Numbered from the stretch's first letter, positions 14,647-53,669 are shown. The stretch: DNA of 56,684 nt from a virus (IMGVR_UViG_3300026518_000013:1-56684); one strand, 5' to 3'. Notes: a model not told the origin generated them from the sequence alone. Numbers and translations are program-made.

Positions 14647-15066
14647 TTAGTTGTTGTTTAATTTTTTTTTATTCAAAATTTCGGCTAATGTTGAATTAGC
14701 TTCATCTTCCGGTAAAGCTTGTTTGTTTAAAACATTACCTTTAGAATCAACAATATCATACAAAATAGTGGAACTGGTTGAACTTTCCTCATTCTTAACT
14801 ATTTTGTATGTAACATCTTCTTTTTGTGTAACTTTTCCTTGGTCTTTTTTACCGGTGATATCTTTTTCAATTTTTTCAAATTCTTTCTTTACCGGTTCTT
14901 CAATCAATTCAAACAAATCACGAAAAGCTTCAGGAATTTTTTCAATATCTAACCAAAGGGTTTCTCCTGGCTTAATAATTTTGTTAGGTAAATGAAGACT
15001 CCCTCCACCTATTTTACGCCATTTCTTTTCACCAGGTTTTGGTTTATAAGTTTTTGTCCTTTCCAT
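14647..15066 (-). CDS. Lys/Glu-rich hypothetical protein after the capsid gene
   Basis: 139 aa ORF starting MERTK. Confidence 0.75.
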   Translation of the reverse strand: MERTKTYKPKPGEKKWRKIGGGSLHLPNKIIKPGETLWLDIEKIPEAFRDLFELIEEPVKKEFEKIEKDITGKKDQGKVTQKEDVTYKIVKNEESSTSSTILYDIVDSKGNVLNKQALPEDEANSTLAEILNKKKLNNN

Positions 15067-15086
15067 TTTTTTTTCAGATTAAAAAT

Positions 15087-15106
15087 AAAACACTTGATTA
15101 GTGTTT
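15087..15106 (-). terminator. Hairpin AAACACT-AATCA-AGTGTTT after the major capsid gene
   Basis: Same 18-mer core as 10547-10564. Confidence 0.6.
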
Positions 15107-15127
15107 CAACGTTATGAGAAAAATTAA

Positions 15128-16237
15128 TTAAGCCAAATGAACAATTCCAGTTTTTCCACTCTGATCAGAACGAATCTGCGGAACTTGAATGGTAATAACT
15201 TTGAAATGATTAACAAACTTGCCTTCAGTCTGCCATTGAATATTCTGAATAGGTAAACCACGTACCAAACGAACCACATCACTGGTCATCTGAACAAGTA
15301 ACACATTGTTTGCCGGCAAAGTATCAATAACTTTGATTCCTTTGATTCCAGAAATCTTTAAAATCCTTTCACGAATGGTCATGTTATTTGCCCCGGTTAC
15401 TGAATAATCTTCATCAATAATAGTTTCATATGCAGTAGGGATATATAACATCCAAGGACCATAATGCCAAGCATCAATACTTTTTTGTTTCATTTTCCGC
15501 ACATCTTCTACAATCTGTGCCGGCGTTTTACCTGACTCATCCCAAGCAACAGTCAATGGTACAGGTAATCTATCAGGATAATTAATATATGAAAAAATAG
15601 TATTTCTTCCTTTACTATCTTTTGCACCAAAGGAATACTTAGTATCAGTGAATAGCATTTGTTCAAGTTTTACCAAAACTTTACGTCCTGCCCTTTCCAC
15701 CATTGTAGTATCCAAAGGATTACCAAGTGCCCGACTGGCAGCCAAAACCCTTGCATTGATTTCATAATCTGCATGAATTATTGGAATTGGCAAATAATTG
15801 TGTGTATAAACCACCCGGTCATTTTTACCACGTGAAATACCATCCATGGTCAACTCGGCTTCCAAGGCATCACTAACATCATGCCATTCCAATACAGTGG
15901 TTCCCATTGCATTTCCAAGGTTATACACCAAACCATTTGCCACCAAATCAGCAACACCACCCAAACGGATTGTTGAAATTTGCTGCAAAGCCCGGTCTAA
16001 AGCAACCCATTCAAACCTTTCCAAAGTTGCCCCACCATCATGTACAATCAACTTGTAATGTTTTGGATTACTGGGGTCAGTACCTGTGAAAACAGAAATA
16101 TAAGATTTCCCTGTTTTCGGGTCATAGAAAGGACGCATCCTTTCAGGAGCAAGTTGTCCATTTGCAGAAAGCATTTGAGCCACTTCCCCATTTACACCAT
16201 TTCTTGTTATAACATCAACATTTACATTATGTTCCAT
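15128..16237 (-). CDS. Major capsid protein (HK97 fold, Linocin-M18/encapsulin-like)
   Basis: LPIPIIHADYEINARVLAASR, YGPWMLYIP; follows protease and decoration genes; strong SD. Confidence 0.9.
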   Translation of the reverse strand: MEHNVNVDVITRNGVNGEVAQMLSANGQLAPERMRPFYDPKTGKSYISVFTGTDPSNPKHYKLIVHDGGATLERFEWVALDRALQQISTIRLGGVADLVANGLVYNLGNAMGTTVLEWHDVSDALEAELTMDGISRGKNDRVVYTHNYLPIPIIHADYEINARVLAASRALGNPLDTTMVERAGRKVLVKLEQMLFTDTKYSFGAKDSKGRNTIFSYINYPDRLPVPLTVAWDESGKTPAQIVEDVRKMKQKSIDAWHYGPWMLYIPTAYETIIDEDYSVTGANNMTIRERILKISGIKGIKVIDTLPANNVLLVQMTSDVVRLVRGLPIQNIQWQTEGKFVNHFKVITIQVPQIRSDQSGKTGIVHLA

Positions 16238-16258
16238 TTTTCTTCTCCTTTCTTTTTT

Positions 16259-16721: not shown

Positions 16722-18557
16722 TTATTTTTCATCTTTCTTATCAAAAGAATAACCCACTAACGGAAGTGGTTCTACTTCGGGTTCCTGATTAACTTCAGGT
16801 TCAGCAACATTATTGCCCAACAACGAAAAATCCAAACCTTCTCTTTTCTTATTAACAGAAATTGATTTCTGAAGTTTCTGCAATGTTTCAAAAGGCATGT
16901 TTTCTAATTCTTCTTTTGACCAAACATTTTCAGTATCAGCCAAAATAGAATTAACAGCCAAAGCTCTTTGAGACTTGTATAATCCCAATCCAAAACGCAT
17001 TTGTTCTTCAAATTCTTTGGGATTGCTTATACCCAAAGCTTTGTAAGCCTGTTCTTTTGAAATATTCACCTGCATAGGTTTTTTTTCAGGTTCCGGTTTC
17101 GGTTTAGGGTCCGGATTTTTCTTTTGAACAACAGGTTGTAGTTTTTCCAATGTTTCAACCTCTAATCCCATCAACCAATCTTTTTCAGCGTCTGTAAATT
17201 GAGTAAATTTATTGGCAATCAAACTACTAACCAATTCATCTTTGTTTTTCATACTTTTTTCTCCTTTCGTACTTTTGTTATTAATAATCCCTGATTTCTG
17301 CGTAACTATCGGGGTATATGTTACATTTCTTTTTACTTGTACCGGTGTCCCATCTAATACTATCTGAACATTATCATCATCTCCTTCAACATTGTATTTT
17401 TGGGAATAAAATTTACTTCCACCTGTTTCAGCATTTCTATTTTCATATATATACTCGTTTGGATACACTTCCAATAACAAATATATCTCATTTTCTGTAT
17501 CTAACGCATTAACTTTCGTTCTAATAGCATTAACAATATCCATATAATCTTTTTGAGCATTGATTTGTACTGTTGCGTAACCATCAATATTCATTAATTT
17601 TGCTTCTTCCAAAACTGTTGGAATTTTAAGTTTTGCATTGAATTCACTATTCAACAATCGATAAGCCCTTCTTCTTGCAGCACTTCTTTGTTCAGCACTT
17701 ATACCAGTTACCTGGGCACCACGTCCACTAATTACAGCCCTCAATGCATGTTCATTCAATTTACCTGTTTTGGGATTGACAACTGGTAACTTCAAATCAC
17801 CAAATGTTGGAGCAGTAGAAGACCCAACTAAGAAATGTGAAGCAATTCTTGCCTTTTCTGTTCTGTTTAATTGGTTCCAATTACCATTTACACCAAAATC
17901 AGACAAAGTTGGACTTCTCCAAACATCGCTTTCTTTGCCATTGTATTTCAATGCGTTAATAACTAAACTAACATTAACATTCATATTTTCTCCTTTCTTG
18001 TTTACCCGGATACCACAACCGTCTTCAATAGAACAAGCTCCTTTATCTTTCGATAACAAAGCCAAATGGTCCGGGCGATGATTTGTTGCAATTGCCGTAT
18101 AATGTTCACCATTCCAATCACCTTCTTGTGGTATTTCATCTGAAAAAACACCAACAGAAACTTCAATTATTTCACCAGCCCTAATCTTTGTTAATAATTC
18201 ATTATCAACATTAGAAAGTTTATCAGGATTTATCCAGGCTTCCGCTTTCAACTTATTATCAACAAATTGAGTATTAAAAACAAAACCAACTGCATTATCT
18301 TCCAATACTTCAGGAATATTTGCCGAAATATAGTTACCAAACGCATCTTTAGGATGATTAACCACTACTGGTCGGCCATCCCAACTTGCAGGAATCTTGC
18401 CCAACTCCTGGGCTGTGTGTAATAATGGTCCATGAGAACCATTATGAACACCTTCAACCATCATAACAACAGGAACAACAATGTAATCTTTTTCTTCAAA
18501 TTGTTTATTAATTCCCTGATAACTGGTAGTATTTCTATAAATATTTAGATTTTTCAT
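16722..18557 (-). CDS. Prohead protease (DUF2213-like) fused to an inserted domain and scaffold
   Basis: PVVVNHP, EVSVG, PDHLALL...GACSIEDGCG; internal SD-led Met at 17984 and 17252. Confidence 0.85.
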   Translation of the reverse strand: MKNLNIYRNTTSYQGINKQFEEKDYIVVPVVMMVEGVHNGSHGPLLHTAQELGKIPASWDGRPVVVNHPKDAFGNYISANIPEVLEDNAVGFVFNTQFVDNKLKAEAWINPDKLSNVDNELLTKIRAGEIIEVSVGVFSDEIPQEGDWNGEHYTAIATNHRPDHLALLSKDKGACSIEDGCGIRVNKKGENMNVNVSLVINALKYNGKESDVWRSPTLSDFGVNGNWNQLNRTEKARIASHFLVGSSTAPTFGDLKLPVVNPKTGKLNEHALRAVISGRGAQVTGISAEQRSAARRRAYRLLNSEFNAKLKIPTVLEEAKLMNIDGYATVQINAQKDYMDIVNAIRTKVNALDTENEIYLLLEVYPNEYIYENRNAETGGSKFYSQKYNVEGDDDNVQIVLDGTPVQVKRNVTYTPIVTQKSGIINNKSTKGEKSMKNKDELVSSLIANKFTQFTDAEKDWLMGLEVETLEKLQPVVQKKNPDPKPKPEPEKKPMQVNISKEQAYKALGISNPKEFEEQMRFGLGLYKSQRALAVNSILADTENVWSKEELENMPFETLQKLQKSISVNKKREGLDFSLLGNNVAEPEVNQEPEVEPLPLVGYSFDKKDEK

Positions 18558-18662: not shown

Positions 18663-18872
18663 TTATTTTTTCTTTAATCGATACATAGGTATATGAGCCA
18701 TTTTTCGAGCTTCTTTTAATTTACCAGCCTTTATTAATCTACCATAAACAAAAGGGTCAGCACTGGCCAAATCAGCTCCAATGTTAAATACCATTTTTCC
18801 TGAAGAATCTTGTTCTTCTACAGGTACTTTTTCATATTGTACCTTTTTCTCTGGTTGTTTTGTTCGTTGCAT
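18663..18872 (-). CDS. Small hypothetical protein downstream of MuF
   Basis: 69 aa ORF starting MQRTKQ. Confidence 0.65.
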   Translation of the reverse strand: MQRTKQPEKKVQYEKVPVEEQDSSGKMVFNIGADLASADPFVYGRLIKAGKLKEARKMAHIPMYRLKKK

Positions 18873-18890: not shown

Positions 18891-20891
18891 TTATAATACA
18901 GTTTGTCTAAAACCAGACGACCCTATTTTTGATTCCCAGCTTTCTAATATAACGCCACCATCTTCTTTTGAAAAAATAGTTAATACTGTACGTAAATCTT
19001 TTAAATTGTAGACCCCTGTTTCTCCTATAACTATATACTCACGTTCTTTTATAAATCGACGGGTTAACCAGGAAAATAATTGAGTCGGTGCAAACACTTG
19101 ATTTATTGGTATTTCTTTTTTAACAACTAATTCGTAATTTAACAATCTTTTTTTTCCTTTATATAGTATAACACCTTTTGACGCCCCAAAATCATCAGCA
19201 ATTAAATAATTTGAAGAATACCCAACCAAGGTCATATCTTTATAATGCAATAAAGTTCTTGCCATATTACCATTAATTATTTTTAACACATTCTTAGATA
19301 TTTCCGTACCAACATCTCCACTAATACCTCGATAAAGTGTTATTTTACCAGCCGGAAAAACTCGTTCCAAATATGCTTGTGAAAATGCCCTAAATCTCAA
19401 ATAAACTTGTTGCATTTCTTCTTCATTTTTAAATTGTTTTTGAACATATTTTTCAACCCATGCAATTCCTTTTCTTTTTGGGTCACTAAATACCATATCT
19501 GGTAAATCTTTTTCATATTTTTTAGCCATATAACGAATTAATTGGCCTCCTTTTGATTGAGTGGTTTGACCCCATTGCCCTAACCAATCTTTCCACATAC
19601 CCTTATCAGGATATATTTCACGAATTTTATATGAAAAATCTTTCAAAGAATGTTCACCATCAATAAAATTATATGGATTATCTTGTTCATTATCAAAAAA
19701 AGCTTTTCTAATTAATTGCCAATCTTTTTCATCAGAAATAGAATCAATTTTTGAAGAAAAATCATCATAATACTTCAAAAATTGTTTAGCATTTTGTTCA
19801 TTAACAAATGAATTATATACTTTTTGAATTGCATCAGGATAATTTGACAAATCAATTTCTGGTCTATTCAATTTTATATTTACTTTTTCTTTTAACTTAA
19901 CTTGTTGACCTTCAGGTTTCTGTAATACCTTTTTCGTTGGAATTGCCACACATCTACATAATGGATGAGCAGGTATCATATTTTGTATTTGGTTCAAAGT
20001 CCAAACACTACCTTCCATACTTGAACATATATCACATACATGAATATCACCAGCTGTTGCCCACTCAGCCTTAACAATAACATTATTTGCCTTCCAATTT
20101 TTGTATTCTTGAACCATAGCAATATGATGGGCACGCATTACTTCCGTACGGGCAAGTAATTCAGCCCTTCTTTGTGCCGGAATAAATCTTCCTAAAGTAT
20201 CTTTAATTGCCAACGTACCCATACCTGTACCATCAATAACAGCAACCAATTTTTTCGCAAGTAAAGTTGTTCCATCGCCATCTATCATTCCTTGTGAAAG
20301 CACCTGGGATATTTGATTACTCATTGCACTGGTTATTCCTTTTAATCCTTCAAATGTTCTTGTATACAATACACCCACTACATCCATGTTAAAAGGTGTT
20401 GACATAGATGCTTCAACACCACCTGTTTCATTCATACCAGGAACATTATAACCAGCCTTCTTTAATTCATATCGTGCCCTTAACAAACCCCGTTTATAAC
20501 TATCAGCTATCCATCTATCAGTCCAAGCTTGATTTATACTACCACCAATTCTTTGCATTGTTTTAACCTGTAACAAATCATCATCAATTTGTTTATTCAA
20601 CCAATTCATGAAATTCTCTACTTTCTGTTGACTGGTAGCAAAATCAAAAGCATGCCAACCCGGGCTACCCGGTAAAACAATAGCCTGTGCAATTAACTGT
20701 TTTTTCAAACCAAAAACATCATCCTGAATAATTGCCTTTCGTATAGATGCCTTTAACTTGTAAAACTTTGCATTCATAGCCTTTACAAACGCATTCTGCA
20801 AAGGTAAAGTCTTTGAAGGGTCAACGCGTCCATAATAAGTTCTACTTTGTTTAGAAGCATTAATAATCGGTATATCAATAACTTTTTCCAT
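18891..20891 (-). CDS. Head morphogenesis protein (MuF/SPP1 gp7) with C-terminal ADP-ribosyltransferase-like extension
   Basis: RAELLARTE, VCDIC...PAHPLCRC; C-terminal LYRG...YSS...EREYIV. Confidence 0.85.
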   Translation of the reverse strand: MEKVIDIPIINASKQSRTYYGRVDPSKTLPLQNAFVKAMNAKFYKLKASIRKAIIQDDVFGLKKQLIAQAIVLPGSPGWHAFDFATSQQKVENFMNWLNKQIDDDLLQVKTMQRIGGSINQAWTDRWIADSYKRGLLRARYELKKAGYNVPGMNETGGVEASMSTPFNMDVVGVLYTRTFEGLKGITSAMSNQISQVLSQGMIDGDGTTLLAKKLVAVIDGTGMGTLAIKDTLGRFIPAQRRAELLARTEVMRAHHIAMVQEYKNWKANNVIVKAEWATAGDIHVCDICSSMEGSVWTLNQIQNMIPAHPLCRCVAIPTKKVLQKPEGQQVKLKEKVNIKLNRPEIDLSNYPDAIQKVYNSFVNEQNAKQFLKYYDDFSSKIDSISDEKDWQLIRKAFFDNEQDNPYNFIDGEHSLKDFSYKIREIYPDKGMWKDWLGQWGQTTQSKGGQLIRYMAKKYEKDLPDMVFSDPKRKGIAWVEKYVQKQFKNEEEMQQVYLRFRAFSQAYLERVFPAGKITLYRGISGDVGTEISKNVLKIINGNMARTLLHYKDMTLVGYSSNYLIADDFGASKGVILYKGKKRLLNYELVVKKEIPINQVFAPTQLFSWLTRRFIKEREYIVIGETGVYNLKDLRTVLTIFSKEDGGVILESWESKIGSSGFRQTVL

Positions 20892-20895
20892 TTTA

Positions 20896-22266
20896 TTATT
20901 CTTCTTGTATATTCGGTGGACTTTGTAAACCTGTACCTTGCATCTGTGTAATCTGACTCAATTGTTCTTCTGATAAACCAAGGAAAAACTTCAAAAATGC
21001 CTCAGGCGAAACAATACCTTCCGACATTGGTTGTGAAGTATAATCTTTTAATGCAGTAGCCCTTTGAACACCAATGTCAACCCTATCTTTTTCTGACAAC
21101 AAAAACAAATCTTCCCAAACAATTTCATAACCATTTTTAGGTTCCGGCAAAATACCAAATTTTATCAATCTGTCTAAGAATGGTCGCAAAATCATTTCTG
21201 TTGCATAAGTATTTCTCCTGTTTTGAATCAATTCTTTCCATTCTTGTGTATCCTGTGTACTGGCCAATTTAGCCCTTTCACTACCTATCAAAATTCTTTT
21301 TGGTATACCTGTTTCTGCACTAATAAGTTGTAATTGTATATCAATATGATTAATTGGGTCTGCCACTTGTTGTGCAAGTGCCTTGTATTCAATACCTTCA
21401 TTAACTAAAAAACGTCTCAAGTTATGTTCATACTCATCCAATTGTTTTTCCAAATCATCAATCATTTCATCTGTTAATTGGTAATCTTTATCAACATTTC
21501 CAGTATAACCAGGACGGGCACCACGCCAAAACATTTCAGCGTCACCCCCACTAATCTTTTCAATGTCCATTAATCGATTATATACAGCTTTTAATCTTGG
21601 TATTCCTTCTAACTCATTGTCTAACACTTCATCAACCACATGAATAACCCGAGTCCAATGAATTGGTATATCTTTACCCCCAATTAGGTAATTCAAAGGT
21701 AACCCAAAACGTGGGTCTTTTGGGTCTGTTATTGTTTTATTCACCTGTGCATTGTTTTCATTGTATGGTTTGATGAATATTAACTTTAGATTTTTACTTT
21801 TTTGAATTGGTTTAGACCAACTATCTTGTGTAACTAAATCATTAGTCCCCAACAATAGAACAGCATATTTACCAATTCCAACCATTTTATCTAATCGTGT
21901 AAAAACAGAACGAAGCTTAAACTGTTTTTTCAATTCATCCACTGCAAGTTCAAACTGTGTTTTTTCATTCCCTTCTTTTTCTAAAATTTCCTGTACATTC
22001 CAACCTTGCCCCTGCCATGTTGCCTTAACTGGCTTATCAATTATTGCTTTCGCTATTTCTTGACGCGAATAACGATTATAATAATCCCTATACCTAATAA
22101 TCTGCGGATAACCAAGTGCATTGAATAGATTTCGAGCTCCATTGTAATTATCCCAACCAAACTTATTGAAAAAATCTAAACGCCCTGCCAAAGCCGACAT
22201 AATTTGCAACCTACTAAATCTTTCCAAAACATTTATTTGTCTTGTTTTGTCATTTGTTTTTTCCAT
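20896..22266 (-). CDS. Portal protein (DUF1073-like)
   Basis: DPKDPRFGLP, IHWTRVIH, ETGIPKRILIGSE; follows TerL. Confidence 0.9.
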   Translation of the reverse strand: MEKTNDKTRQINVLERFSRLQIMSALAGRLDFFNKFGWDNYNGARNLFNALGYPQIIRYRDYYNRYSRQEIAKAIIDKPVKATWQGQGWNVQEILEKEGNEKTQFELAVDELKKQFKLRSVFTRLDKMVGIGKYAVLLLGTNDLVTQDSWSKPIQKSKNLKLIFIKPYNENNAQVNKTITDPKDPRFGLPLNYLIGGKDIPIHWTRVIHVVDEVLDNELEGIPRLKAVYNRLMDIEKISGGDAEMFWRGARPGYTGNVDKDYQLTDEMIDDLEKQLDEYEHNLRRFLVNEGIEYKALAQQVADPINHIDIQLQLISAETGIPKRILIGSERAKLASTQDTQEWKELIQNRRNTYATEMILRPFLDRLIKFGILPEPKNGYEIVWEDLFLLSEKDRVDIGVQRATALKDYTSQPMSEGIVSPEAFLKFFLGLSEEQLSQITQMQGTGLQSPPNIQEE

Positions 22267-23831
22267 TATCGTATCCTCCTAACTTGTTTTTTTCTAACTA
22301 ACGCATGAAAAGCACCTGAGGAAGCATCCACCTGGTCTTTATATGTACCATTTGGAAAATATTTCAATTCATCAATATAATCTTTATTCCAAGGTGCTTG
22401 CATCAAATATACATTACCTACTTCAACTTGTACTGAATAAGGGTCAGCCCTATATACTTTATCTCCTGATGGTCTTTCTGCATATACACGAAAACCAGCT
22501 AAATTTCGTATTGTATTTTCTGCACTTTCTTTTCCACCACTTCCAGGTTCTTGTTCAATCCAAATCTCAACATGAACACCATCAGCCTCTGCAGTTGCTC
22601 TTATAATTCGTTCACGTTCCCCTGTTGACCATTGACCACGCTTAACATCCTCAACAATAAATTTTCCATTACGCAATTTGGACATCTTAACACCAACCGT
22701 ATAAGCACCACCATCTTTTGTCCCTGCCTTATCCCAGTATCTAACTGTTTGTACATAGTTAACTTCTGCAAATGGATGAGTTATATATTGAAACATATCT
22801 ACTTTAAACATTCCCCCTGTTAATGGAACCGGATTTTGCCCTATTTGACCAGCATAACCATATTGACCTAACTTTTTTCGCATATTTTCCAAAACCAAAA
22901 AAGGTAACCGATTTGGGTCTAATAAACCATTCTTATAATTAATTTTTAAATATGCAGGTTTTAACACTTTTTCATAATTAACAATTTCACCTGGTAAACA
23001 AATATGTTTTACCGGTGTTCCTTGTTTTAGTATATGACCTGTTGGGTCATCCTGGTTTAATCTTTGCATAATTAATATCATAACAGAAACCTTTTTATCA
23101 ATTAGCCGTGTTGATAATGTTTGATCAAGCCAATTATTAACTGTTTTTAACATTGTTTCTGACATCGCTTGTTTTGGGTTAATCGGATCATCAACCAATA
23201 ACAAATCACCATGAAATCCAGTTAACGTTCCACCCACCGATGTAGTGTATCTACTACCACCATTTTTTATACTGTAAGCTTTGCCTTTGTTAGTCCGTAA
23301 CTTCCTGATAACCTGAAAGTTGGATTTTGTATCTTTATCCACACGAATCATCAATTCCGGATACATCTCCCTAAATTTATCGCTATCAAGTAAATCCCGT
23401 ACCTTATCACTAACTTCCATAGACAAAGACGAAGAATAAGAAGCACTGGCAAATTTTAACTTAAAATATTTAGTCCATGCCCATGCATTCAGCATAATAT
23501 TAACAATAGTGGTTTTAGTAGTTCCAGGAGGTACATTAATTATTAAATCATATAATTTTGGTTTTCCTGCCGCTACCCTTTCTACTACTTTTTGTAATTC
23601 ATCACATAAATATTCTATATGCCAATTATCCTGTAATGATGTAGTGGAAACTTCATCCCAAAAATATCTAAAAAAATGATAAAACCTTTTATTATTTAAA
23701 TTTCTTTGGATGGTTAATGGATTTAATAAAGCCTGTTTTACCCTTTCCCTTTGGGGAGGTTTTGTACGAATCATAGTTCCCACTGTAATAGGAACTTGTT
23801 CAGGAAGTAATATATCAGCTTGTGGTAACAT
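22266..23831 (-). CDS. terL: Terminase large subunit
   Basis: NVPPGTTKT Walker A, LLVDDP Walker B, YWDKAG and DQVDA nuclease motifs. Confidence 0.95.
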   Translation of the reverse strand: MLPQADILLPEQVPITVGTMIRTKPPQRERVKQALLNPLTIQRNLNNKRFYHFFRYFWDEVSTTSLQDNWHIEYLCDELQKVVERVAAGKPKLYDLIINVPPGTTKTTIVNIMLNAWAWTKYFKLKFASASYSSSLSMEVSDKVRDLLDSDKFREMYPELMIRVDKDTKSNFQVIRKLRTNKGKAYSIKNGGSRYTTSVGGTLTGFHGDLLLVDDPINPKQAMSETMLKTVNNWLDQTLSTRLIDKKVSVMILIMQRLNQDDPTGHILKQGTPVKHICLPGEIVNYEKVLKPAYLKINYKNGLLDPNRLPFLVLENMRKKLGQYGYAGQIGQNPVPLTGGMFKVDMFQYITHPFAEVNYVQTVRYWDKAGTKDGGAYTVGVKMSKLRNGKFIVEDVKRGQWSTGERERIIRATAEADGVHVEIWIEQEPGSGGKESAENTIRNLAGFRVYAERPSGDKVYRADPYSVQVEVGNVYLMQAPWNKDYIDELKYFPNGTYKDQVDASSGAFHALVRKKQVRRIR

Positions 23832-24471
23832 GATTTTCTTCTTCTTTTTGATATTGTGTTATATTATCATTGGAATCTATTTCTTCTGCTTCCTGAACAT
23901 CCTGATTTTCCGGTATTTGAACTAATTTTTTATTGGTTCCAATTTTCCCTGTCAATTTTTGAAGCAAAAGCAATTCTTTTTCCGATAAATCGGATAAATC
24001 CAATGTAGCAAGGTCTAATGCCTGTTTTTCCTGCCATTCCAATGAAAAATCCACACGATCAGACCAGGTAAATTCATTCATTCTGGTCCTATTTTTTAAC
24101 CAAAATATGGCAGCCTGTGTATCAGGGGGAAAATATTTCATCATTTGCACAATTTCTGATTGTTTATTTTTGGAAATAATGACCTCCACCGGTTGATAAA
24201 ATCCGGTTGCTTTCCGATATATAGCACGTGCCACATTGGCATCTGCAATACGTTGACCCTCCCGTAATGATTCCAATAATTCAGAATGTTGCATTATCCA
24301 TTTTTCAAAACTATCCACCCGAATATGAAAAGCTGCTGCAATTTCCCGTCTGGTCAACCCAAGTAAAGCCAAACGATGTGCCATTTTTGGATGAAAATTC
24401 GGATCATATTTACTTTTTGGACCAGTTTTTCCCGTTATTGGTTGTAATTTTGGTTTTCTTGTTCTAATCAT
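23815..24471 (-). CDS. terS: Terminase small subunit
   Basis: HTH; ADANVARAIYRKATG...PPDTQAAIFWLKNR. Confidence 0.9.
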   Translation of the reverse strand: MIRTRKPKLQPITGKTGPKSKYDPNFHPKMAHRLALLGLTRREIAAAFHIRVDSFEKWIMQHSELLESLREGQRIADANVARAIYRKATGFYQPVEVIISKNKQSEIVQMMKYFPPDTQAAIFWLKNRTRMNEFTWSDRVDFSLEWQEKQALDLATLDLSDLSEKELLLLQKLTGKIGTNKKLVQIPENQDVQEAEEIDSNDNITQYQKEEENHVTTS

Positions 24472-29531: not shown

Positions 29532-30386
29532 CTAATTAAATGTTTTCCAAATATAATCCTGAACCCTCTTTGGTATTTTATTTGCTGCAAAATACACCCG
29601 TAAATTATTTGCATAATCCAAATCAGACTTAAATTCCCCTTGTAAACCCGAAATAAACGCTTGTACGTCCATATCTTGCTTTATTGGATGCCTTATATCC
29701 TGCACCCATACATCTTGCCGTATAGGCAAAGGAATTAATTCAATTTCTTTAGTTTCCAAATCATATAAAAATACCTGTGGTTGAAAATCTTTTTGTTGAC
29801 TGGTTAATCGCATCATACTACCAGGATTAACCAATAATTTATCCCCAAATTTAACAAAAAAAGATTGGTGATTATCCCCCGTCACAATAACATCAGCTAA
29901 ATCTTTATACTTACGCAAAATACGCACGGCATTTGTACCTATATCAGCTTGCCAAGTTTCTACCTTTCCAGGCTTATATACAAATTTATGCCAAACCAAA
30001 AACCGGGTATTACCAAAAACAATAATATCTTGTTCATTTGGTTCCCTGTCCCAATGACATCCAGATAATACCTTCAAAACACCAGCTTGTTGTAAGGTAT
30101 AAATACCAGTCATTTCTTTCAATTCTAAATTATGTTGAGGTAAATCATGATTACCATACAAAGTATAAAATTGGTCTGGTAAATACCCAATTGTATAAGA
30201 CAATAATCGAGGAGAAGGTTTCCAATGATCAAATAAATCGCCAGCATGAATAACTGAACAATTATACTTTTTTTGCAATTTAGAAATAAAATGTACCTTT
30301 TCCCACATATCATTCCAAAAAGACCCTGTACGAGATATCGGGGTCTTTTCACGTAAATGCCAATCACTGGTTAAAATCACCTTCAT
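29532..30386 (-). CDS. sbcD: SbcD/Mre11-like metallophosphoesterase nuclease
   Basis: SDWH, AGDLFD, GNHD, GDNH, NPGS. Confidence 0.9.
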   Translation of the reverse strand: MKVILTSDWHLREKTPISRTGSFWNDMWEKVHFISKLQKKYNCSVIHAGDLFDHWKPSPRLLSYTIGYLPDQFYTLYGNHDLPQHNLELKEMTGIYTLQQAGVLKVLSGCHWDREPNEQDIIVFGNTRFLVWHKFVYKPGKVETWQADIGTNAVRILRKYKDLADVIVTGDNHQSFFVKFGDKLLVNPGSMMRLTSQQKDFQPQVFLYDLETKEIELIPLPIRQDVWVQDIRHPIKQDMDVQAFISGLQGEFKSDLDYANNLRVYFAANKIPKRVQDYIWKTFN

Positions 30387-31063: not shown

Positions 31064-32122
31064 TTAATGAGTACATTTAGAAACTTGACAACCACATAAC
31101 GGACAAATATCAGGAAATTCCCTGTTAAATAGTTGTTTAAGTTGATTATGAGTAGTATACTGTATTCTCCAAACTGAAATATTATCTTTCAATTGTAAAA
31201 TTAATTTTTGCAATTTCTTAACTTTTGTTTGCAAATTAACATATTGATTCCAATTTTCATTTAATAAAATAATCTTATTTTTAGCAGAAAGCAAATCTTG
31301 ATATCCGGATATTTCTTGTTCCAAATTCCAGAAATCATTCTTTATACGATACAATTTTTGTTTACGAGTAATTAATTTTTCCCAATCTTGTCGTTTCTTT
31401 ATTAATTTTTTAACCTGCGGACTTATCTTTAATATTTTTTGCTGTACAACATAATTTCCTTCGATTTCCCGGACTTTATTAATTAATACGACCAAAGTAT
31501 TAATATTGCGTTTTAATTCGTCTAATCGCTTTAATTTAGCTTGTAAATTTTTTACCTCTTTTTCCAACCCTGGTAAAAAAGAATATTGCTTCCGCTGTTC
31601 CCGATATTCTTGTAATTTTGCTTTTTCAAATTTATATTCTTGGTTTACTTCAAATAACTGATGATTTAATGACTTTAATGTAGTATGAATTTGCTCCAAA
31701 TGAGCTACTCGATTAAAAAATAAAGCAACCTCGCCGGGTGTATTAGAAAATAAAAAAGAATTATCCATTTGATGTTGAATATTTACTTTATCCAAATTCA
31801 ATAATTCTTTAACAGAATCCGGCACATCAATTTTTAATGCTTTTAATAATAAATTATCATTAATAATATATTCATTTTCATTTTTGGTTCTTTTTCTTTC
31901 AATTTTTCCATTATCTAAATCTAAAATAACCCGAGTATCACCACCCCAATAACTCCTAAATTCATCTCCTGATGGACGATTAAAAACAAGCCAACGAATA
32001 GCCCGTATAATAGCAGTTTTTCCTGAATCACTTGAACCCAAAATAATATTAACACCAGGATGAAAATCAAGTTCAGTTTCTTTATGACTTTGAAAATTTT
32101 TTATTCTAATACTTTTAATCAT
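31064..32122 (-). CDS. sbcC: SbcC/Rad50-like ATPase, N-terminal half with terminal zinc hook
   Basis: IKNFQSH, GSSDSGKT Walker A, Q-loop, coiled coil, CPLCG. Confidence 0.9.
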   Translation of the reverse strand: MIKSIRIKNFQSHKETELDFHPGVNIILGSSDSGKTAIIRAIRWLVFNRPSGDEFRSYWGGDTRVILDLDNGKIERKRTKNENEYIINDNLLLKALKIDVPDSVKELLNLDKVNIQHQMDNSFLFSNTPGEVALFFNRVAHLEQIHTTLKSLNHQLFEVNQEYKFEKAKLQEYREQRKQYSFLPGLEKEVKNLQAKLKRLDELKRNINTLVVLINKVREIEGNYVVQQKILKISPQVKKLIKKRQDWEKLITRKQKLYRIKNDFWNLEQEISGYQDLLSAKNKIILLNENWNQYVNLQTKVKKLQKLILQLKDNISVWRIQYTTHNQLKQLFNREFPDICPLCGCQVSKCTH

Positions 32123-32589
32123 TTTGTTCTTTTTAACAATTTTGTATGATACAACGTTTTCTCTGTCAAATGAAGTAAATGTAAAGCATCAGCCTCGTTA
32201 TCATCATTACCCAAATAATTATACAGTTTCTTGGCAGCTTCAATCATTGCAAGTTTACCACAATTACCTTTTCCCGTAGCGAATTTTTTTATTTCAGACG
32301 CAGAAAAAGCTATATATTCCAATTCATAATCAATAACAACACTTTCAATAATCCCGATTATTTTAGATTGTGTAATAATTGCCCTCGTATTACGCCCCGC
32401 CGGACGTTCATAAGCAATCACTTTTATTTCCGGATAAGCTTCTAATATTTCAGTTAATTTACTTCGAAAACGAATCAATTTCATACCCCAACTTTCATCC
32501 GTCCTGGTATGTAGATTCCATGTACCGTAAATTTCCTTACTCAAAGCCCAACCACTTATTGTTGCAGGATCAATCGCCAGTATTCTCAT
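32119..32589 (-). CDS. ruvC: RuvC-like Holliday junction resolvase
   Basis: ILAIDP, IAYE, IKKFATGKGN, DDNEADA. Confidence 0.9.
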   Translation of the reverse strand: MRILAIDPATISGWALSKEIYGTWNLHTRTDESWGMKLIRFRSKLTEILEAYPEIKVIAYERPAGRNTRAIITQSKIIGIIESVVIDYELEYIAFSASEIKKFATGKGNCGKLAMIEAAKKLYNYLGNDDNEADALHLLHLTEKTLYHTKLLKRTK

Positions 32590-32913: not shown

Positions 32914-33913
32914 TTAATTCCCACAAATCAATTACCTGTTCCCGTAAATCTTTTTCCCATCCATTCTCTTCAATAATTTGAATAGATTTTTCCAAACTTC
33001 GATCCAAATTCTCACCATTAAATGTATATACTGACGAACCATTATATTGTTTAATAAACTTTAAATTCTCCCTAATATCATCAATTCCATAATCAAATAA
33101 AATAGTTAAATCTGCTTCCCTATATGGTGCCCAAACAGAATTTTTAAACACTTGTATTCTTGATGTAACACCTATTACTTTTTTAATTTGTTTTCCTTTT
33201 ATTGTAACTACTTTTTTAATTTTTTCCAACAAATTTACTTTCAATCGAACAGACGAATAAAAACCAATCGCTTCACCACCCGGAGAAACATATTTCTGAC
33301 CAAACATGCCGGCATTTGCATTAATCCTAACTTGATTGGAAGCTACTAATAAATAATTTTTTTGCTTCAAAATACGAGCAGTTTTACGTAATTCCTCAGA
33401 AAATTCTTTTGCCCGACGCATTCCCATCTTATCCCCCTCTTGATTATCCATTTCCAAATTAGTAGATAATGCAGCTAATGAATCGGCCATAATCCCATTA
33501 ATTTTTGTAGGGTCATTTGGTTGCCAATTACGAATTGAGGAAAAAACTTCCGGAATAGTATCAGGAGTAGTATAATCCATTTCATCAATTTGCAAATCAA
33601 ATAAACGAGCAAAAGTAGTATTCAATCTTGCTTCCGGGTCATGAAAGAGAATACCCCCACCTAATCGTTGAATATTACCGGCAATTTCACACAACATAAC
33701 AGTCTTTCCAGAACCAGATGGACCGAATATTTCCACCATAATACCACCCAGTAAACCACCCCCACGAATACGACCACCAGAAATCGCCAAATCTAATAAA
33801 GTAGAACCAGTTGAAATAACTTGTGAAATATTTCCATCATATTGAAAATTTTTATCATTAATTTGGGAAATACTATTACTTATTTTTTCTGCTAAATTTG
33901 TACGTCGTATCAT
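32873..33913 (-). CDS. recA: RecA-family recombinase
   Basis: ISTGSTLLDLAI, GPSGSGKT, DSLAAL, NQVR, GGEAIGFYSSVRL. Confidence 0.95.
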   Translation of the reverse strand: MIRRTNLAEKISNSISQINDKNFQYDGNISQVISTGSTLLDLAISGGRIRGGGLLGGIMVEIFGPSGSGKTVMLCEIAGNIQRLGGGILFHDPEARLNTTFARLFDLQIDEMDYTTPDTIPEVFSSIRNWQPNDPTKINGIMADSLAALSTNLEMDNQEGDKMGMRRAKEFSEELRKTARILKQKNYLLVASNQVRINANAGMFGQKYVSPGGEAIGFYSSVRLKVNLLEKIKKVVTIKGKQIKKVIGVTSRIQVFKNSVWAPYREADLTILFDYGIDDIRENLKFIKQYNGSSVYTFNGENLDRSLEKSIQIIEENGWEKDLREQVIDLWELIEKKFASGRKKER

Positions 33914-43863: not shown

Positions 43864-43888
43864 TATTATACATAAAAAAATGATTTAC
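43864..43888 (-). promoter_or_regulatory. Putative middle promoter GTAAAT-N10-TGTATAATA
   Basis: Same layout as 31039-31063. Confidence 0.6.
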
Positions 43889-43906
43889 GTTAACAAAAAA
43901 TTAACA

Positions 43907-44677: not shown

Positions 44678-45036
44678 AATTCAAAGTATTTTGCACTGGT
44701 TTTAGGTGTTTCCTTGACTTCAATAGAATAAAGTTCCGGATACTTATCACGCCAAACATCAAAAATAAATTTCGCAATATTCTCAGCACTGGGATTCATA
44801 CCTATCGGTAAACGCTCATTTAAGTACCTATGGTCAAACAGGTCATCCAACCATTGTTTAAATTCAGACAAATCTCTATAATCTCGAATAAATCCAGCTT
44901 CATTCAAATTTTCACCACGTAATGTAATTGTAACATGATAATCATGTCCATGTAAACGCGTACAAGGATGAGTACTCGGCAAATGTTCTAACGAATGGGC
45001 AGCCGAAAACATAAATTGCTTTGAAATTTCATACAT
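44674..45036 (-). CDS. queD: 6-carboxytetrahydropterin synthase
   Basis: FSAAH, CTRLHGH, FDHRYLN, PSAENIA, VKETP. Confidence 0.96.
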   Translation of the reverse strand: MYEISKQFMFSAAHSLEHLPSTHPCTRLHGHDYHVTITLRGENLNEAGFIRDYRDLSEFKQWLDDLFDHRYLNERLPIGMNPSAENIAKFIFDVWRDKYPELYSIEVKETPKTSAKYFEL

Positions 45037-48595: not shown

Positions 48596-49516
48596 TTATA
48601 TAACTAATTGACCGGCATATTGATTTAAAATTTCATTAACTATTTTTTGAGCCTGTAAATTGGTTAATTCGCCGGGGTCTTTTGCCGGTACCCTATATCT
48701 AAAAGCATTAACACCGGCAAATTTTAATTTAGCAATCAATTGTTGTGCTTTTGCTTCCGCTTGTGGTTCATTGTCATACATAACCACAATAGTATCAAAA
48801 TACTTAACCATTTGCCTAACTTGTTCCCGGGTAAACTCAATACCAAAAGTAGCAAATGATAAAGGACCAATTTTCCAAACGTCAGTTACCCCTTCAACAC
48901 AAATTCCAAAACGCAACCAATGACTTTGTTTGCCATATAAAATATGTTTATGATGAATTTTTTCATAATTTTCCGGACATACTAAATAACGATAACTGGT
49001 TTTACCTGTAAAATCACGGGCAACAAACGACACATTTTCTCCTTCCCATTCAATTGGAATTATTAACCGGTTTGCATAATTATGTGTACCTAACATAGAA
49101 ACTGGTCCGGAAGCTTTAACCCCCCAAAATTGTTTAATATAGATAGGATCAAATCCTCTATTATGCAAATATTTTCTATGTGTTTTTAAAAAATAAGGAA
49201 ATAAATTTGATGGGAATTTAAAATCATTTTTAGTTATCTTTTTTTGAATTACCTTATTTTTGCCACCATATTCATTAATAATATCCCTTGCTTCTAAATA
49301 AGGAATATTCAAAAGAGCGGAAATAGTTTTGATAACCGGATGAAAACCACAGCGCCAACAATAAAAATAATTGTGACGCAAATTATACCCTAAATGATAA
49401 CCCGGATTTCCAGTACAAAAGGGACATTCCACATTAACCCATCCAGGCCTACAATGTTTATGTCCCTCCGTTTTGTAATCCAGGTTATAATCCTGATATA
49501 AATCAATTATTTTCAT
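48596..49516 (-). CDS. DNA primase (Zn finger + TOPRIM)
   Basis: CPFC...CWRC, CVEGVTD, YDNE, KDPGE. Confidence 0.88.
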   Translation of the reverse strand: MKIIDLYQDYNLDYKTEGHKHCRPGWVNVECPFCTGNPGYHLGYNLRHNYFYCWRCGFHPVIKTISALLNIPYLEARDIINEYGGKNKVIQKKITKNDFKFPSNLFPYFLKTHRKYLHNRGFDPIYIKQFWGVKASGPVSMLGTHNYANRLIIPIEWEGENVSFVARDFTGKTSYRYLVCPENYEKIHHKHILYGKQSHWLRFGICVEGVTDVWKIGPLSFATFGIEFTREQVRQMVKYFDTIVVMYDNEPQAEAKAQQLIAKLKFAGVNAFRYRVPAKDPGELTNLQAQKIVNEILNQYAGQLVI

Positions 49517-50009
49517 ATAATACCTGTTTCATGTCTCGAAATGCACTGTAAATTCGTGGCCAAGTCCAACCTTTTTCTCTCAATTCTTTTTTTAATTGTC
49601 CCCGAATATATTTTGGAGGTTTTCCAATATATTGATGAGGATTAGTGATAATCATATTAGCTATGATTTTTGCATCTTTTGAAAATTGGTCTTCCAATTC
49701 CCAATAATACCCAACTTTCGTGCTTTGATTGACCTGATTTAATTCTACTTGAACCGGCATTTTTTCCTGATGTGCAAAATTAATAAGGGCACTTTTTATG
49801 CGAATATAAGCCCAAGTTGAAAATTTGGTTTTAGATTCCGGTTCATACGTATTTATTGCTTCGGCGTAGGCTAACATTGCTTCGGCGTATAATTCGTCAT
49901 ATTCAATTCCAGTGGTAGAATTAAATGACCAAGCAAGTTGTCGGGCAATACCTAAATCTTTTAATTGAACTTTTGATTTTGATTGAGGAAATTTTGTACG
50001 TTTCATCAT
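49503..50009 (-). CDS. Sigma-70 region 2-like phage sigma factor
   Basis: EYDELYAEAMLAYAEAINTYEP...KFSTWAYIRIKSAL. Confidence 0.8.
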   Translation of the reverse strand: MMKRTKFPQSKSKVQLKDLGIARQLAWSFNSTTGIEYDELYAEAMLAYAEAINTYEPESKTKFSTWAYIRIKSALINFAHQEKMPVQVELNQVNQSTKVGYYWELEDQFSKDAKIIANMIITNPHQYIGKPPKYIRGQLKKELREKGWTWPRIYSAFRDMKQVLYENN

Positions 50010-50010: not shown

Positions 50011-50229
50011 TTAATACTTTATTTCAAAAACATCTAAAATCTCATACCCTTGTTCTACAAGGGTATCTTTCCCCTCCAATGAATTGAAGAGGAATAATTC
50101 AGCCCCTTCCCAGGAATCTGGATGATGGGCTATAATGGCAAACTTCTCAGAATGCCCCACTATTTCATCCCCAAAGGGGGTAAGTGGGGTTTCTTTTTCA
50201 AAAATGTCATTATAATTTATTTTTTTCAT
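50011..50229 (-). CDS. Hypothetical protein
   Basis: 72 aa ORF. Confidence 0.7.
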   Translation of the reverse strand: MKKINYNDIFEKETPLTPFGDEIVGHSEKFAIIAHHPDSWEGAELFLFNSLEGKDTLVEQGYEILDVFEIKY

Positions 50230-50249
50230 GATTTTTTTGTTTTTGATTA

Positions 50250-50378
50250 TTAAAATTTTATTTGCGAAGGTTTACAATCAAAATAAATAACAATTCCTGG
50301 GAAATTTAAACTTTTAGAATAATAACCCACTTGAATAACATGTGGAAGCTTACGAATTGGTGATTTTTGCGTTTTCAT
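50250..50378 (-). CDS. Small hypothetical protein (42 aa, not in the ORF track)
   Basis: MKTQKSPIRKLPHVIQVGYY...; AAAAAGCC-ATGAAA leader like the other early genes. Confidence 0.55.
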   Translation of the reverse strand: MKTQKSPIRKLPHVIQVGYYSKSLNFPGIVIYFDCKPSQIKF

Positions 50379-50390
50379 GGCTTTTTGTTT

Positions 50391-50621
50391 TTATAATTCA
50401 TTAACTATTTTTACTAAGTCTACTTTATGTAATGTATAATTTTTTGGAAGTTGTACAACTTCCTGATTAGCCAATTTAATAGCTTTAAATTCATTATCTG
50501 AATAATTACCTAAAAACATATAAATTGTATCACTATAAAGAGTGTGTTTTGCATCAATATAAAACAGGTCTTTTAATTTTAAAGTTTCCCAATTTTTGAA
50601 GTTTGATTTTTGTGCTTTCAT
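50391..50621 (-). CDS. Early protein, paralogue of the C-terminal half of 53199..53669
   Basis: W..LK..DLFY...YMFLG....FKAI shared. Confidence 0.8.
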   Translation of the reverse strand: MKAQKSNFKNWETLKLKDLFYIDAKHTLYSDTIYMFLGNYSDNEFKAIKLANQEVVQLPKNYTLHKVDLVKIVNEL

Positions 50622-50651
50622 GACTTTTTGTTTTTTGGTTAATTACTAATG

Positions 50652-52368: not shown

Positions 52369-52664
52369 TTTAATTGATTATTTAAATAATATTTTTTTAT
52401 TTGTTTTTCAAAATTTTTTCTTTTTCGATATACTTGTTGAGGATGATAAAGTAAAATATGTCTACCATGCCATTTTTGTATTGCATTTTTAGAAATCATT
52501 GCGTAATTTGCAATATAATAACGACATATTTGTTGAACTTGTTTCAATTTTTGTTGACATTGCAAAAATTTAATATGTTCCTGCCTATACTTATAATTTT
52601 GTTGTATAGCGGCAGCAAAAACAATGAATATAATTAACCAAACTGTAATACTAATTTTTTTCAT
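52365..52664 (-). CDS. Membrane-anchored hypothetical protein
   Basis: N-terminal hydrophobic segment. Confidence 0.6.
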   Translation of the reverse strand: MKKISITVWLIIFIVFAAAIQQNYKYRQEHIKFLQCQQKLKQVQQICRYYIANYAMISKNAIQKWHGRHILLYHPQQVYRKRKNFEKQIKKYYLNNQLK

Positions 52665-52936
52665 AGAGCGTAATATTTGAAACCATTCTTAAAAATAGTT
52701 TTATGTTTTATCTTCAATAACGCATAAAATTGTTCTGCATTAGCCCTTGCCATTGCAGTTGAATAGTCACCACTAAGAACAGCTTTCCAAAACCAACTAT
52801 TTGTTTCAATGTATTGATTTTTGGCAAGTTTTCTTAAAAACATTTTTGCGGTATAACTTGATTTTTTAGTCTTTACTAAAACATGTAACATTTGATGTTT
52901 TAATTTTTGTTTGTTAGCAGGTTTTGTACGTATCAT
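52661..52936 (-). CDS. Hypothetical protein
   Basis: Starts MIRTK; FWKAVLSGDYSTAMARA. Confidence 0.7.
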   Translation of the reverse strand: MIRTKPANKQKLKHQMLHVLVKTKKSSYTAKMFLRKLAKNQYIETNSWFWKAVLSGDYSTAMARANAEQFYALLKIKHKTIFKNGFKYYAL

Positions 52937-53190
52937 AATTCAATAATAACTTTTACATTTTTATAAATAAAACCATTTTTTATCAAAAAAATCTGCGTTG
53001 GAAATTCCCTTTTTAATTGTATATAAGTTTTACGCAATATTTTACGCGTAATATGTAAAGAAGGAAAATATACTTTATATGTATCCGCTATTTTTTCAAA
53101 CATACCAAAAATGTCAACCCGGAGTACAATATCAAATTGTACTTCCGGATTTATTTTTGCATTATTTAATATAATTATATTTGTTCTCAT
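52933..53190 (-). CDS. Hypothetical protein
   Basis: 85 aa ORF starting MRTN. Confidence 0.65.
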   Translation of the reverse strand: MRTNIIILNNAKINPEVQFDIVLRVDIFGMFEKIADTYKVYFPSLHITRKILRKTYIQLKREFPTQIFLIKNGFIYKNVKVIIEL

Positions 53191-53198
53191 TTTTATTT

Positions 53199-53669
53199 TT
53201 ATTTTGTTCGCATTAAAGTAGTTATACCAAATTTACGTCTTAATTGAATATAATCAATTTTATAAATAGAAAAATTCTTTGCTAAACCAATAGCACTCTG
53301 AGTATTAATATCAATTGCTTTAAAATAAGCCGGCGACCGATCCCCTAAAAACATATAAGTACTTTTGAAATTCTCTACATAAAACAAATCACCTGGTTTT
53401 AATTTATTCCATTCAATAGACTTTTTATTAAAATTTTCATCAAATCCAACAATTGCCACAATATATGGTTTTGAATTAATAGGATTACGATAAACAGGAA
53501 CCCGAATTGAATCTCCATTTTCCCGAATCGCTATAAAACGGGAACGATTCATTTTAACAAAAGTAACAATTTCACCATCAATTAATTTAACGCAAGTACC
53601 AGTTTTAATGTCCTTAAATTGAACTTTACCTTGTATCCCTACTGGTAATAAATAAGTTTGTGCTTTCAT
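53199..53669 (-). CDS. Early two-domain (SH3-like) protein
   Basis: Paralogous to 50391..50621; ends LMRTK. Confidence 0.75.
   Translation of the reverse strand: MKAQTYLLPVGIQGKVQFKDIKTGTCVKLIDGEIVTFVKMNRSRFIAIRENGDSIRVPVYRNPINSKPYIVAIVGFDENFNKKSIEWNKLKPGDLFYVENFKSTYMFLGDRSPAYFKAIDINTQSAIGLAKNFSIYKIDYIQLRRKFGITTLMRTK

Follow-up and report, generated by a model that had tools for sequence, protein, structure and literature searches.

A phi-x-Arg-Thr-Lys peptide at the ends of DNA-processing and packaging proteins in an uncultured phage group: a candidate docking handle

The virus record IMGVR_UViG_3300026518_000013:1-56684 (56,684 bases, hereafter the window, meaning this whole stretch) is a complete phage genome with a G+C content of 26-37%. 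All of its long open reading frames (ORFs) lie on the minus strand, as does every feature to which window coordinates are given below. We analysed a short peptide, phi-x-Arg-Thr-Lys (phi being a hydrophobic residue), which a first-pass annotation of this DNA had noticed at the ends of many unrelated proteins. A crude gene caller, which took the first ATG, GTG or TTG of each ORF and proceeded greedily by length, gave 84 ORFs in the window (17,979 amino acids). Family searches identified packaging and head genes (the small and large terminase subunits TerS and TerL, a DUF1073-type portal, MuF-like and decoration-like proteins, a DUF2213 prohead protease with a fused scaffold-like part, the major capsid protein and tail genes), replication genes (primase, DnaB, DnaC-like proteins, clamp, clamp loader and a split DNA polymerase), T4-like recombination genes (a gp32-like single-stranded DNA-binding protein (SSB), UvsX/RecA, a UvsY-like protein, SbcCD and RuvC), a sigma-70 region-2 protein and a 7-deazaguanine cluster.

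The strict tag was defined as M{1,2}xRT[KR] at the N-terminus, and its C-terminal form as phi-x-RT[KR]. MERTK begins the 139-amino-acid protein encoded directly after the major capsid gene, hereafter the post-capsid protein (tag 15052..15066, gene 14647-15066), and MQRTK begins a 69-amino-acid protein encoded between the MuF-like and protease genes (18858..18872, gene 18663-18872), whose sole homologue found, in contig L010, has no tag. MIRTK stands at Met20 of the TerL ORF (23760..23774, ORF 22266-23831), MIRTR at the start of TerS (24457..24471, gene 23815-24471), M-MKRTK at that of the sigma-70 region-2 protein (49992..50009, gene 49503-50009) and MIRTK at that of a 91-amino-acid protein (52922..52936, gene 52661-52936). 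The family searches returned no match for the 69- and 91-amino-acid proteins. Two copies immediately precede a stop codon: LKRTK in RuvC (32122..32136, gene 32119-32589), where the stop codon overlaps the ATG of the next gene, and LMRTK in a 156-amino-acid protein (53202..53216, gene 53199-53669). Variant N-termini were MIRRTN in RecA/UvsX (33896..33913, gene 32873-33913), the shortened MRTN of an 85-amino-acid protein (53179..53190, gene 52933-53190) and MEKTN, a degenerate copy, in the portal (22252..22266, gene 20896-22266), where relatives have MERTK or MKRTK. Weaker variants are MQRKN (28056), a C-terminal MQRKK (35402) and LVRRRK, twice in the gp32-like SSB; the SbcD-like nuclease (29532..30386) is untagged here and begins MKVILTSDWH. 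All instances listed by the first-pass annotation were found where it had placed them, and its identification of TerL, TerS, the sigma protein, RecA/UvsX and RuvC as carriers was upheld by the family searches.

Comparison with within-protein shuffles showed that the strict N-terminal tag is present on 5/84 proteins, when 0.024 were expected, and the C-terminal form on 2/84, when 0.007 were expected. None of 20,000 shuffles reached either count, the maximum for the N-terminal form being two, so that the proposed excess over composition-matched sequences was recovered. RT[KR] occurs 13 times in the window proteins, seven or eight times at a terminus. A test on the window that preserves the composition of each column and counts any tripeptide with at least three copies at positions 3-5 gave P = 0.042. 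The enrichment in the window alone is thus suggestive, not overwhelming, and it is the relatives that settle that the tag is real.

Close relatives were absent from the cultured phage collection: a megablast search with positions 20000-34000 had no match, tblastn searches with TerL, portal, SbcD and RuvC gave identities of at most 40%, and two distant cultured phages, Vibrio 1.247.A and Brevundimonas StAshley, are without the tag. We describe two sets of uncultured relatives. Among related contigs the labels of metagenome-assembled genomes were mixed, 6-7 of 16 being of Bacteroidota type. The capsid set consisted of the best 80 of 222 loci (57-69% identity; 1,026 called ORFs) from a metagenome scan with the capsid protein, and the SbcD set of the best 80 of 248 viral contigs around SbcD (1,750 distinct proteins). 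All homologue counts below take in related sequences and are not independent events. Database proteins have the starts annotated by their sources, and our gene caller put antisense ORFs in place of at least four real tagged genes in the relatives.

The strict tag began 25/1,026 ORFs of the capsid loci, where RTK was the commonest tripeptide at positions 3-5. In sets of homologues the motif was a terminal feature: it occurred at the termini of 15/120 RuvC, 40/120 SbcD and 8/150 TerS proteins, and in their interiors 0 times in 14,086, once in 31,096 and three times in 23,858 amino acids, respectively. One could ascribe such a pattern to chance or composition, that is, to basic, A-rich N-termini in an AT-rich phage. 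Lys and Arg are generally abundant at N-termini, the column-preserving test on the window alone was borderline, and the pattern was seen on 10/1,434 non-gene ORFs of the relatives. Of these ten matches, however, four are displaced real genes of the post-capsid protein and four are one conserved antisense stretch, and the window has the tag on 0/61 non-gene ORFs. The G+C content of tagged and untagged loci was alike (0.411 vs 0.387 and 0.367 vs 0.370), over a range of 26-55% with tagged loci up to 55%, from which it follows that the tag is not a composition effect; a link to AT-richness and the minor groove was rejected on the same ground. The shuffles, this range and the restriction of the tag to certain carriers contradict the chance reading, to which we give almost no credence.

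The carriers in the relatives include proteins of the head and of packaging. The post-capsid protein has the strict tag in 15/46 orthologues and, by eye, a phi-x-R-T start in 31/46. Conservation of M1 and R3 in their alignment is 90% or higher, and a linker of variable length, between 0 and about 45 amino acids, leads to the folded part. An AlphaFold2 model of this protein (predicted local distance difference test, pLDDT, 80) left residues 1-13 without secondary structure. The model had no match in the PDB at E <= 0.001, a protein atlas search returned viral hypothetical clusters only, and viral-contig scans with the 139- and 156-amino-acid proteins gave no relatives. Portal orthologues start with the strict tag in 6/20 cases and have it within the first 40 residues in 9/20, and the portals of L019, L021 and L036 have C-terminal copies. 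TerS of contig L001 keeps MIRTRKPKLQPITG; in 3/5 TerS relatives MxRTK lies just inside an overlong called ORF, and 7/150 distant representatives have the tag at the start. TerL of L001 (94% identity) has the same 15 tag nucleotides as the window, whereas the next four codons differ (PPQR vs SSKK). The strict tag was present on 0/71 major capsid, 0/61 decoration, 0/24 MuF and 0/49 glycosyltransferase-like proteins of the capsid loci.

Other carriers are enzymes that act on DNA. Relatives of SbcD are the commonest tag carriers: 40/120 homologues of this nuclease have the strict tag and 52/120 an MxRT start, on an extension of about ten amino acids that the window SbcD does not have. In the SbcD set the strict N-terminal tag was found on 23/72 SbcD, 20/67 RecA/UvsX and 3/13 RuvC proteins; a viral-contig scan with the window RecA gave loci at 28% identity only. 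In a related 56-kb contig the tag begins SbcD, ends an IS110-type protein and is also carried by the post-capsid protein. Twenty tagged proteins of the SbcD set had no homologue in the window, and ten of them were sent to Pfam, which gave three RuvC, two PD-(D/E)XK (one below the curated cut-off), one endonuclease VII, one GIY-YIG/NUMOD3 nuclease, one weak DUF3882 and two without match. The strict tag was present on 0/392 neighbouring proteins of the same set (123 SbcC halves, 64 SSB, 59 UvsY-like proteins, 49 polymerase pieces, 49 copies of an 81-amino-acid protein and 48 clamp loaders), and this is a further point against chance, given SbcD at 40/120 and RecA at 20/67. Enzymes that cut DNA and belong to at least five unrelated folds thus bear the tag, as do a recombinase, both terminase subunits and the portal, and the replication machinery does not; this extends to the relatives the earlier remark that every recognisable carrier acts on DNA.

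The RuvC family showed that the tag is an add-on which can be placed at either end, as had been supposed. Among the best 120 homologues, 66 begin directly at the catalytic core with no extension; eight have the strict N-terminal tag (11 by a looser definition) and seven have a C-terminal phi-x-R-T-[KR]. C-terminal extensions are present on 10/120 homologues, and 7/10 are tagged. The seven are the five closest homologues (73-96% identity) and two at 57-58%, and their linkers are divergent. A quick tree of the RuvC core alone placed an N-tagged and a C-tagged protein as sisters (P0083 and P0103; Shimodaira-Hasegawa approximate likelihood ratio test 89), and the starred branches of this tree allow fewer origins. 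Q[RN]SLF ends 2/10 of the C-terminal extensions (RuvC proteins with other add-ons being P0020, P0056, P0082, P0120, P0104, P0009 and P0024), and four or five other phage RuvC proteins have MPKLPN-type N-termini. Different phage groups seem, from these termini, to use different tags on RuvC.

TerL of L001 and the RuvC homologues keep the tag while their flanks diverge, as had been expected; the sigma protein does not keep it in every orthologue. The sigma tag is kept in P0002 (86% identity) and absent in P0003 (54%) and L006 (82%). In L006 (1165-1866) an in-frame fusion joins sigma to a homologue of the window gene 27399-27647 (MKATKKQIEQIEKA...), and the tag is replaced. Taken together, neither outcome that the first-pass annotation had named as refuting it, a terminal frequency at the level of shuffles or close relatives devoid of the tag, was obtained.

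The codons of the tag were also compared. Window tags encode Arg by AGG, CGA, CGT and AGA. In 45 distinct tag DNAs of SbcD, RecA and RuvC, Arg was encoded by AGA (19), CGA (12), AGG (10), CGC (2), CGG (1) and CGT (1), and Thr by ACA (25), ACT (12), ACC (5) and ACG (3). The first observation, that the Arg codon varies, therefore extends to both codon families in the relatives; the companion statement that Thr is always ACA is correct for the window, where ACA makes up 41% of Thr codons, and does not apply to the relatives. Thr followed Arg3 in 44/112 proteins, with no enrichment of Thr after Lys3, and was strongly favoured over Ser. The use of both Arg codon families and of all four Thr codons, together with the retention of the tag while its flanks diverge, leads us to conclude from the sequences that selection acts on the tag as a peptide. 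An RNA or DNA motif as the main cause was rejected, as k-mer positions and codons speak against it, despite the extra ACAAA after window starts.

A nucleotide-level component is nevertheless visible near start codons. ACA is overused for the Thr of the tag (73% vs 31-40%), and in the window ACAAA is enriched from +6 to +12 in several frames; these two observations together imply that such a component exists. The tag might, on this evidence, be a translation-start module, in which an A-rich M-[E/K]-R-T-K leader would ensure reliable initiation or early elongation of genes without a Shine-Dalgarno sequence or with catalytic first codons (RuvC Asp7, SbcD Asp8/His10), the C-terminal copies being by-products of the A-rich context at the next start. 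A Shine-Dalgarno sequence precedes 5/36 tagged genes vs 306/912 others (P = 0.017), the tags of RuvC and SbcD lie on short extensions ahead of an N-terminal catalytic motif, and C-terminal tags adjoin or overlap the next ATG (0-17 nucleotides before the start codon) in 3/4 cases with DNA. However, Arg is encoded by both CGN and AGR and Thr by all four codons, and in the relatives ACAAA peaks in frame only, at +9 (27 vs 2 and 4 in the neighbouring frames). Phi is at position -5 in 7/7 C-terminal RuvC tags, and the highly expressed major capsid and decoration genes are never tagged. The motif is also conserved away from starts, with the non-start codons TTA, TTT, ATA and GTA at the phi position of internal copies, and neither these copies nor the codon diversity can be explained by a translation-start module, which we judge improbable.

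Internal copies were found in TerL and in the protease. The related TerLs have phi-x-R-T-[KVI] within 25 residues of the start in 5/5 cases (four distinct), 3-11 residues past the first ATG, with ATG, TTA or ATA as the phi codon. The alignment of TerL homologues and of phrog_38 begins only at residue 17-23, and Met20 is possibly the true start of the window TerL. In the relatives of the DUF2213 protease-scaffold protein, [hydrophobic or His]-x-R-T stands at one linker position in 22/38 sequences, where the phi codon is ATG 14 times and otherwise TTA, TTG, TTT, GTA, GTG or ATA, with CAT for His. The motif is absent from the linker of the window protease; AIRTK at residue 346 of that protein was taken as chance, as it aligned with nothing conserved. 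Separately, an internal Met of the protease gene (window 16722-18557; relatives L010-L089) is kept in 39/39 aligned sequences. It is preceded by NKGG codons that resemble a ribosome-binding site, AAAGGAGG, with the linker motif about 15 residues upstream, and it is probably a nested in-frame start of the scaffold.

The linker copies raise the possibility that the motif is a maturation cleavage site of the prohead protease, the N-terminal copies steering proteins into the procapsid. Its recurrence in the DUF2213 linker shortly before the conserved Met, and the tags of the portal and the post-capsid protein, would agree with this. Most carriers, on the other hand, are cytoplasmic DNA enzymes and terminase subunits. 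Most copies outside the linker lie at extreme termini, and a site that consists of residues 1-5 or of the last five would offer no segment to be cut off. The window linker has no motif and the major capsid protein is never tagged. We hold this explanation to be very unlikely overall, and it could at best fit the linker copy only. The capsid-targeting sequence of T4 is confined to the N-termini of internal proteins packaged into the head, from which the prohead protease cuts it off. The tag resembles it as a short N-terminal peptide on unrelated phage proteins with a link to the head module (portal, post-capsid protein, protease-scaffold linker). It differs in being also C-terminal (two in the window, RuvC 7/120, and the three portals mentioned above) and in linkers, and in having as carriers SbcD, RecA, RuvC, endonuclease VII, PD-(D/E)XK and GIY-YIG enzymes, TerS, TerL and sigma. 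The early suggestion of a signal of this T4 kind is thus unlikely to hold.

The nature of the carriers would also suit a regulatory handle on dangerous or low-copy enzymes: a degron, a site for an inhibitor or chaperone, or a site of Thr, Arg or Lys modification, through which one host or phage factor would regulate the nucleases, the recombinase, terminase and sigma in amount or in timing. The carriers are mostly nucleases of five folds and terminase, which are needed in small amounts, and the genes mostly have no Shine-Dalgarno sequence, i.e. they are weakly expressed. Recognition by a specific enzyme or pocket would account for the strong preference for Thr over Ser. In its terminal position, its portability and its presence at either end the tag is like ClpX-type signals; ClpX recognition signals and adaptor tethering tails are short, portable, at either terminus and read by one machine. 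The RTK consensus, however, differs from these signals. No Clp-type unfoldase, kinase or ADP-ribosyltransferase was recognised among the scanned proteins, which covered part of the ORFs, and structural carriers such as the portal, the post-capsid protein and the protease-scaffold linker suit a degron poorly. A regulatory role is, in our view, unlikely, if less so than a role in translation initiation or in capsid targeting.

Several known systems are similar in part, the closest precedents being T4 gp32 and the homeodomain arm. In T4 gp32 an N-terminal Lys-Arg-Lys-Ser-Thr docks on the next gp32 at an acidic surface, and residues nearly the same as these line the trough for single-stranded DNA in the core (PMC12893549). 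Like this LAST motif, (Lys/Arg)3(Ser/Thr)2, the tag is a pentapeptide with basic and hydroxyl residues at the extreme N-terminus of phage DNA-metabolism proteins, and the window has a gene for a gp32-like SSB whose C-terminal region is acidic. Unlike LAST, which is known from the self-cooperativity of one protein, the tag is common to many unrelated proteins, and it has two basic residues, one Thr, one hydrophobic residue and often Glu at position 2. The LAST composition (three basic and two hydroxyl residues) was found, by eye, in 0/8 strict window tags (residues 2-6 or the last five) and in some relatives, e.g. MKRTKT.... In the arm of the engrailed homeodomain Arg5 lies in the minor groove and Thr6 on the phosphate backbone (PMC2853105). 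Arg next to Thr in a basic, flexible segment at the N-terminus is the feature in common, and the likeness ends at these two residues; the homeodomain arm is eukaryotic, fold-specific and not portable, and no homeodomain was found in the window.

Clamp-binding motifs and the PIP and APIM boxes of PCNA clients are short and portable, stand at either terminus or internally, and are present on many unrelated replication, repair and transposition proteins that meet at one DNA-bound hub (10.64898/2026.05.27.728225; PMC4549789). The tag is likewise short and portable and can be N-terminal, C-terminal or internal, but it is basic and unrelated in sequence. The bacterial beta-clamp consensus is Q-L-[S/D]-L-F or a related hydrophobic penta- or hexapeptide, which the tag does not match. 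Polymerase pieces (0/49) and clamp loaders (0/48) are untagged, as are the termini of the window polymerase, in contrast to what is expected of clamp clients, and the portal and head proteins that carry the tag are not clamp clients. The Q[RN]SLF of two RuvC homologues does resemble the bacterial clamp-binding pentapeptide; since C-terminal extensions of RuvC bear either the tag or Q[RN]SLF, such extensions may be places for recruitment motifs. A complex prediction with two copies of the phage clamp and RuvC tail residues 117-156 gave a score of 0.00 and, being without controls, speaks neither for nor against binding. A further likeness is found in T4, where endonuclease VII reportedly associates with the portal gp20. 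Resolvases of three folds share the tag with portal, TerL and TerS, and we know of no shared peptide behind the association in T4. A search of the literature outside supplementary files gave no description of a phi-x-R-T-K motif, in keeping with the first impression that no such system had been described. Terminal short linear motifs are known as a class.

From its sequence properties, we consider phi-x-Arg-Thr-Lys to be a portable short linear motif in which the initiator Met is usually phi, giving M-[E/K]-R-T-K. It is short and predicted to be unstructured, it is conserved amid varying flanks and linkers, and it was gained and lost repeatedly on unrelated folds. Its sharing across unrelated proteins points to one common reader. 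These properties, five unstructured residues at either end or in a linker of unrelated folds with a shared task, favour a tethering or docking handle by which proteins of DNA processing and packaging would gather at one common ligand associated with DNA, a tentative reading to which we give somewhat less than an even chance. A flexible N-terminal, C-terminal or linker segment would present the tag on proteins for the cutting, recombination or packaging of phage DNA (the SbcD-like nuclease and resolvases of several folds, RecA/UvsX, TerS, TerL, portal, sigma, the post-capsid protein and the protease-scaffold linker). The contact would be made by Arg and Lys, with the beta-branched Thr and the hydrophobic residue beside them, to a single ligand, rich in phosphate or acidic, at the place where debranching and packaging of replicated phage DNA occur. 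This ligand could be the backbone of the DNA, the gp32-like SSB through its acidic tail, or the portal or packaging complex; both the binding and the identity of the ligand are what we infer from the distribution of the tag. Within loci, tags on SbcD and RecA tended to occur together (15/16/10/32, odds ratio 3.0, P = 0.045, uncorrected for relatedness).

Several results weigh against a docking handle. No reader of the tag was found; a ligand that is a phage protein would need to be conserved across very divergent phages, and no partner of this kind stands out. Glu is the commonest residue at position 2 (31/74 distinct tags), which is odd for a plain DNA-binding arm, and the lack of tags on SSB, UvsY, polymerase and clamp loader argues against a generic arm of this kind. 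The spread over very divergent phages, with TerS carriers only 30-47% identical to the window TerS, argues against a fast-evolving phage partner. The tag load per related whole contig is uneven (8-10 in the window, three in G001, one in G002 and 0-1 in G003), the sigma tag is lost in near relatives, and co-occurrence of tags within the head module (portal, protease, post-capsid protein) was only a trend (P 0.075-0.09, n=14 loci). The acidic tail of the SSB was equally present in tagged (39) and untagged (31) loci, which did not differ in the internal phi-x-R[RK][RK]K motifs of this protein either. The scarcity of Shine-Dalgarno sequences, the overuse of ACA and the position of C-terminal tags just before the next start belong on this side too, the first two leaving room for a translational component. 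In the window SSB itself (34272-35375) the long C-terminal region is acidic and contains two EEPEEEKLVRRRK repeats, and its end is rich in Cys.

A more specific form of the docking handle would be an addressing code of this large uncultured phage group, in which one dedicated reader of M-[E/K]-R-T-K assembles a DNA-maturation factory. Either a phage protein, such as the portal or the tail of the SSB, or a factor conserved in the hosts would act as this reader. The concatemer would be the place where SbcD, RecA, terminase, portal and debranching nucleases of whatever fold are kept in one assembly, and any enzyme could join the machine by gaining five terminal residues. This form is possible, and we regard it as doubtful.

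Other features of the genome were recorded in the course of this work. A set of 7-deazaguanine (queuosine-precursor) genes at 41004-45036 comprises TGT/DpdA-like, GTP cyclohydrolase, QueC, a 170-amino-acid protein without assignment, QueE and QueD, and suggests modified DNA. A link between these genes and the tag was rejected, as they had no blastp match in G001-G004 and those contigs are still tagged. The DNA polymerase is split into two adjoining ORFs of 406 and 462 amino acids (37250-39851), and SbcC (28680-32122) likewise occupies two ORFs, its N-terminal part at 31064-32122 and its C-terminal ATPase part at 28680-29333, with SbcD in between. The head module includes two enzyme-like genes at 12548-14626, both with weak family matches: one (13850-14626; 49 homologues in 80 loci) is similar to MptE/Maf or alpha-2,3-sialyltransferase and the other (12548-13204) to sulfotransferase, and a modification of the virion by their products is possible. 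Just ahead of the MERTK gene and after the capsid gene, an inverted repeat precedes a T run (aaacact...agtgttttattttt; about 15080-15106); this is probably a terminator and would reduce expression of the gene downstream. The start context AAAAAGTCATGAAA is common to eight small genes (five exact, three with one mismatch) whose proteins begin MK[AT][QK], at 25046-25059, 27381-27394, 27642-27655, 50224-50237, 50373-50386, 50616-50629, 54004-54017 and 54303-54316. Nine matches to it were counted vs 3.9 expected, at least nine being obtained in 4/100 shuffles, and it may be a repeated early-gene leader.

The tag is of practical use in annotation. It aids the choice of start codons, as for Met20 of TerL and for mis-called TerS and portal starts, and it flags DNA-processing proteins among hypothetical ORFs. 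As a five-residue handle that functions at either terminus, it could serve as a tool for the recruitment of cargo to phage DNA or heads. The recruitment of resolvases and repair nucleases to packaging DNA is known anecdotally only, e.g. for T4 endonuclease VII and the portal, and a shared tag would make this question directly testable with peptides. If one reader recognises the pentapeptide, nucleases of recombination and debranching, the recombinase and the packaging motor would be tied together by a simple system of recruitment or control in phages of a very large uncultured group.

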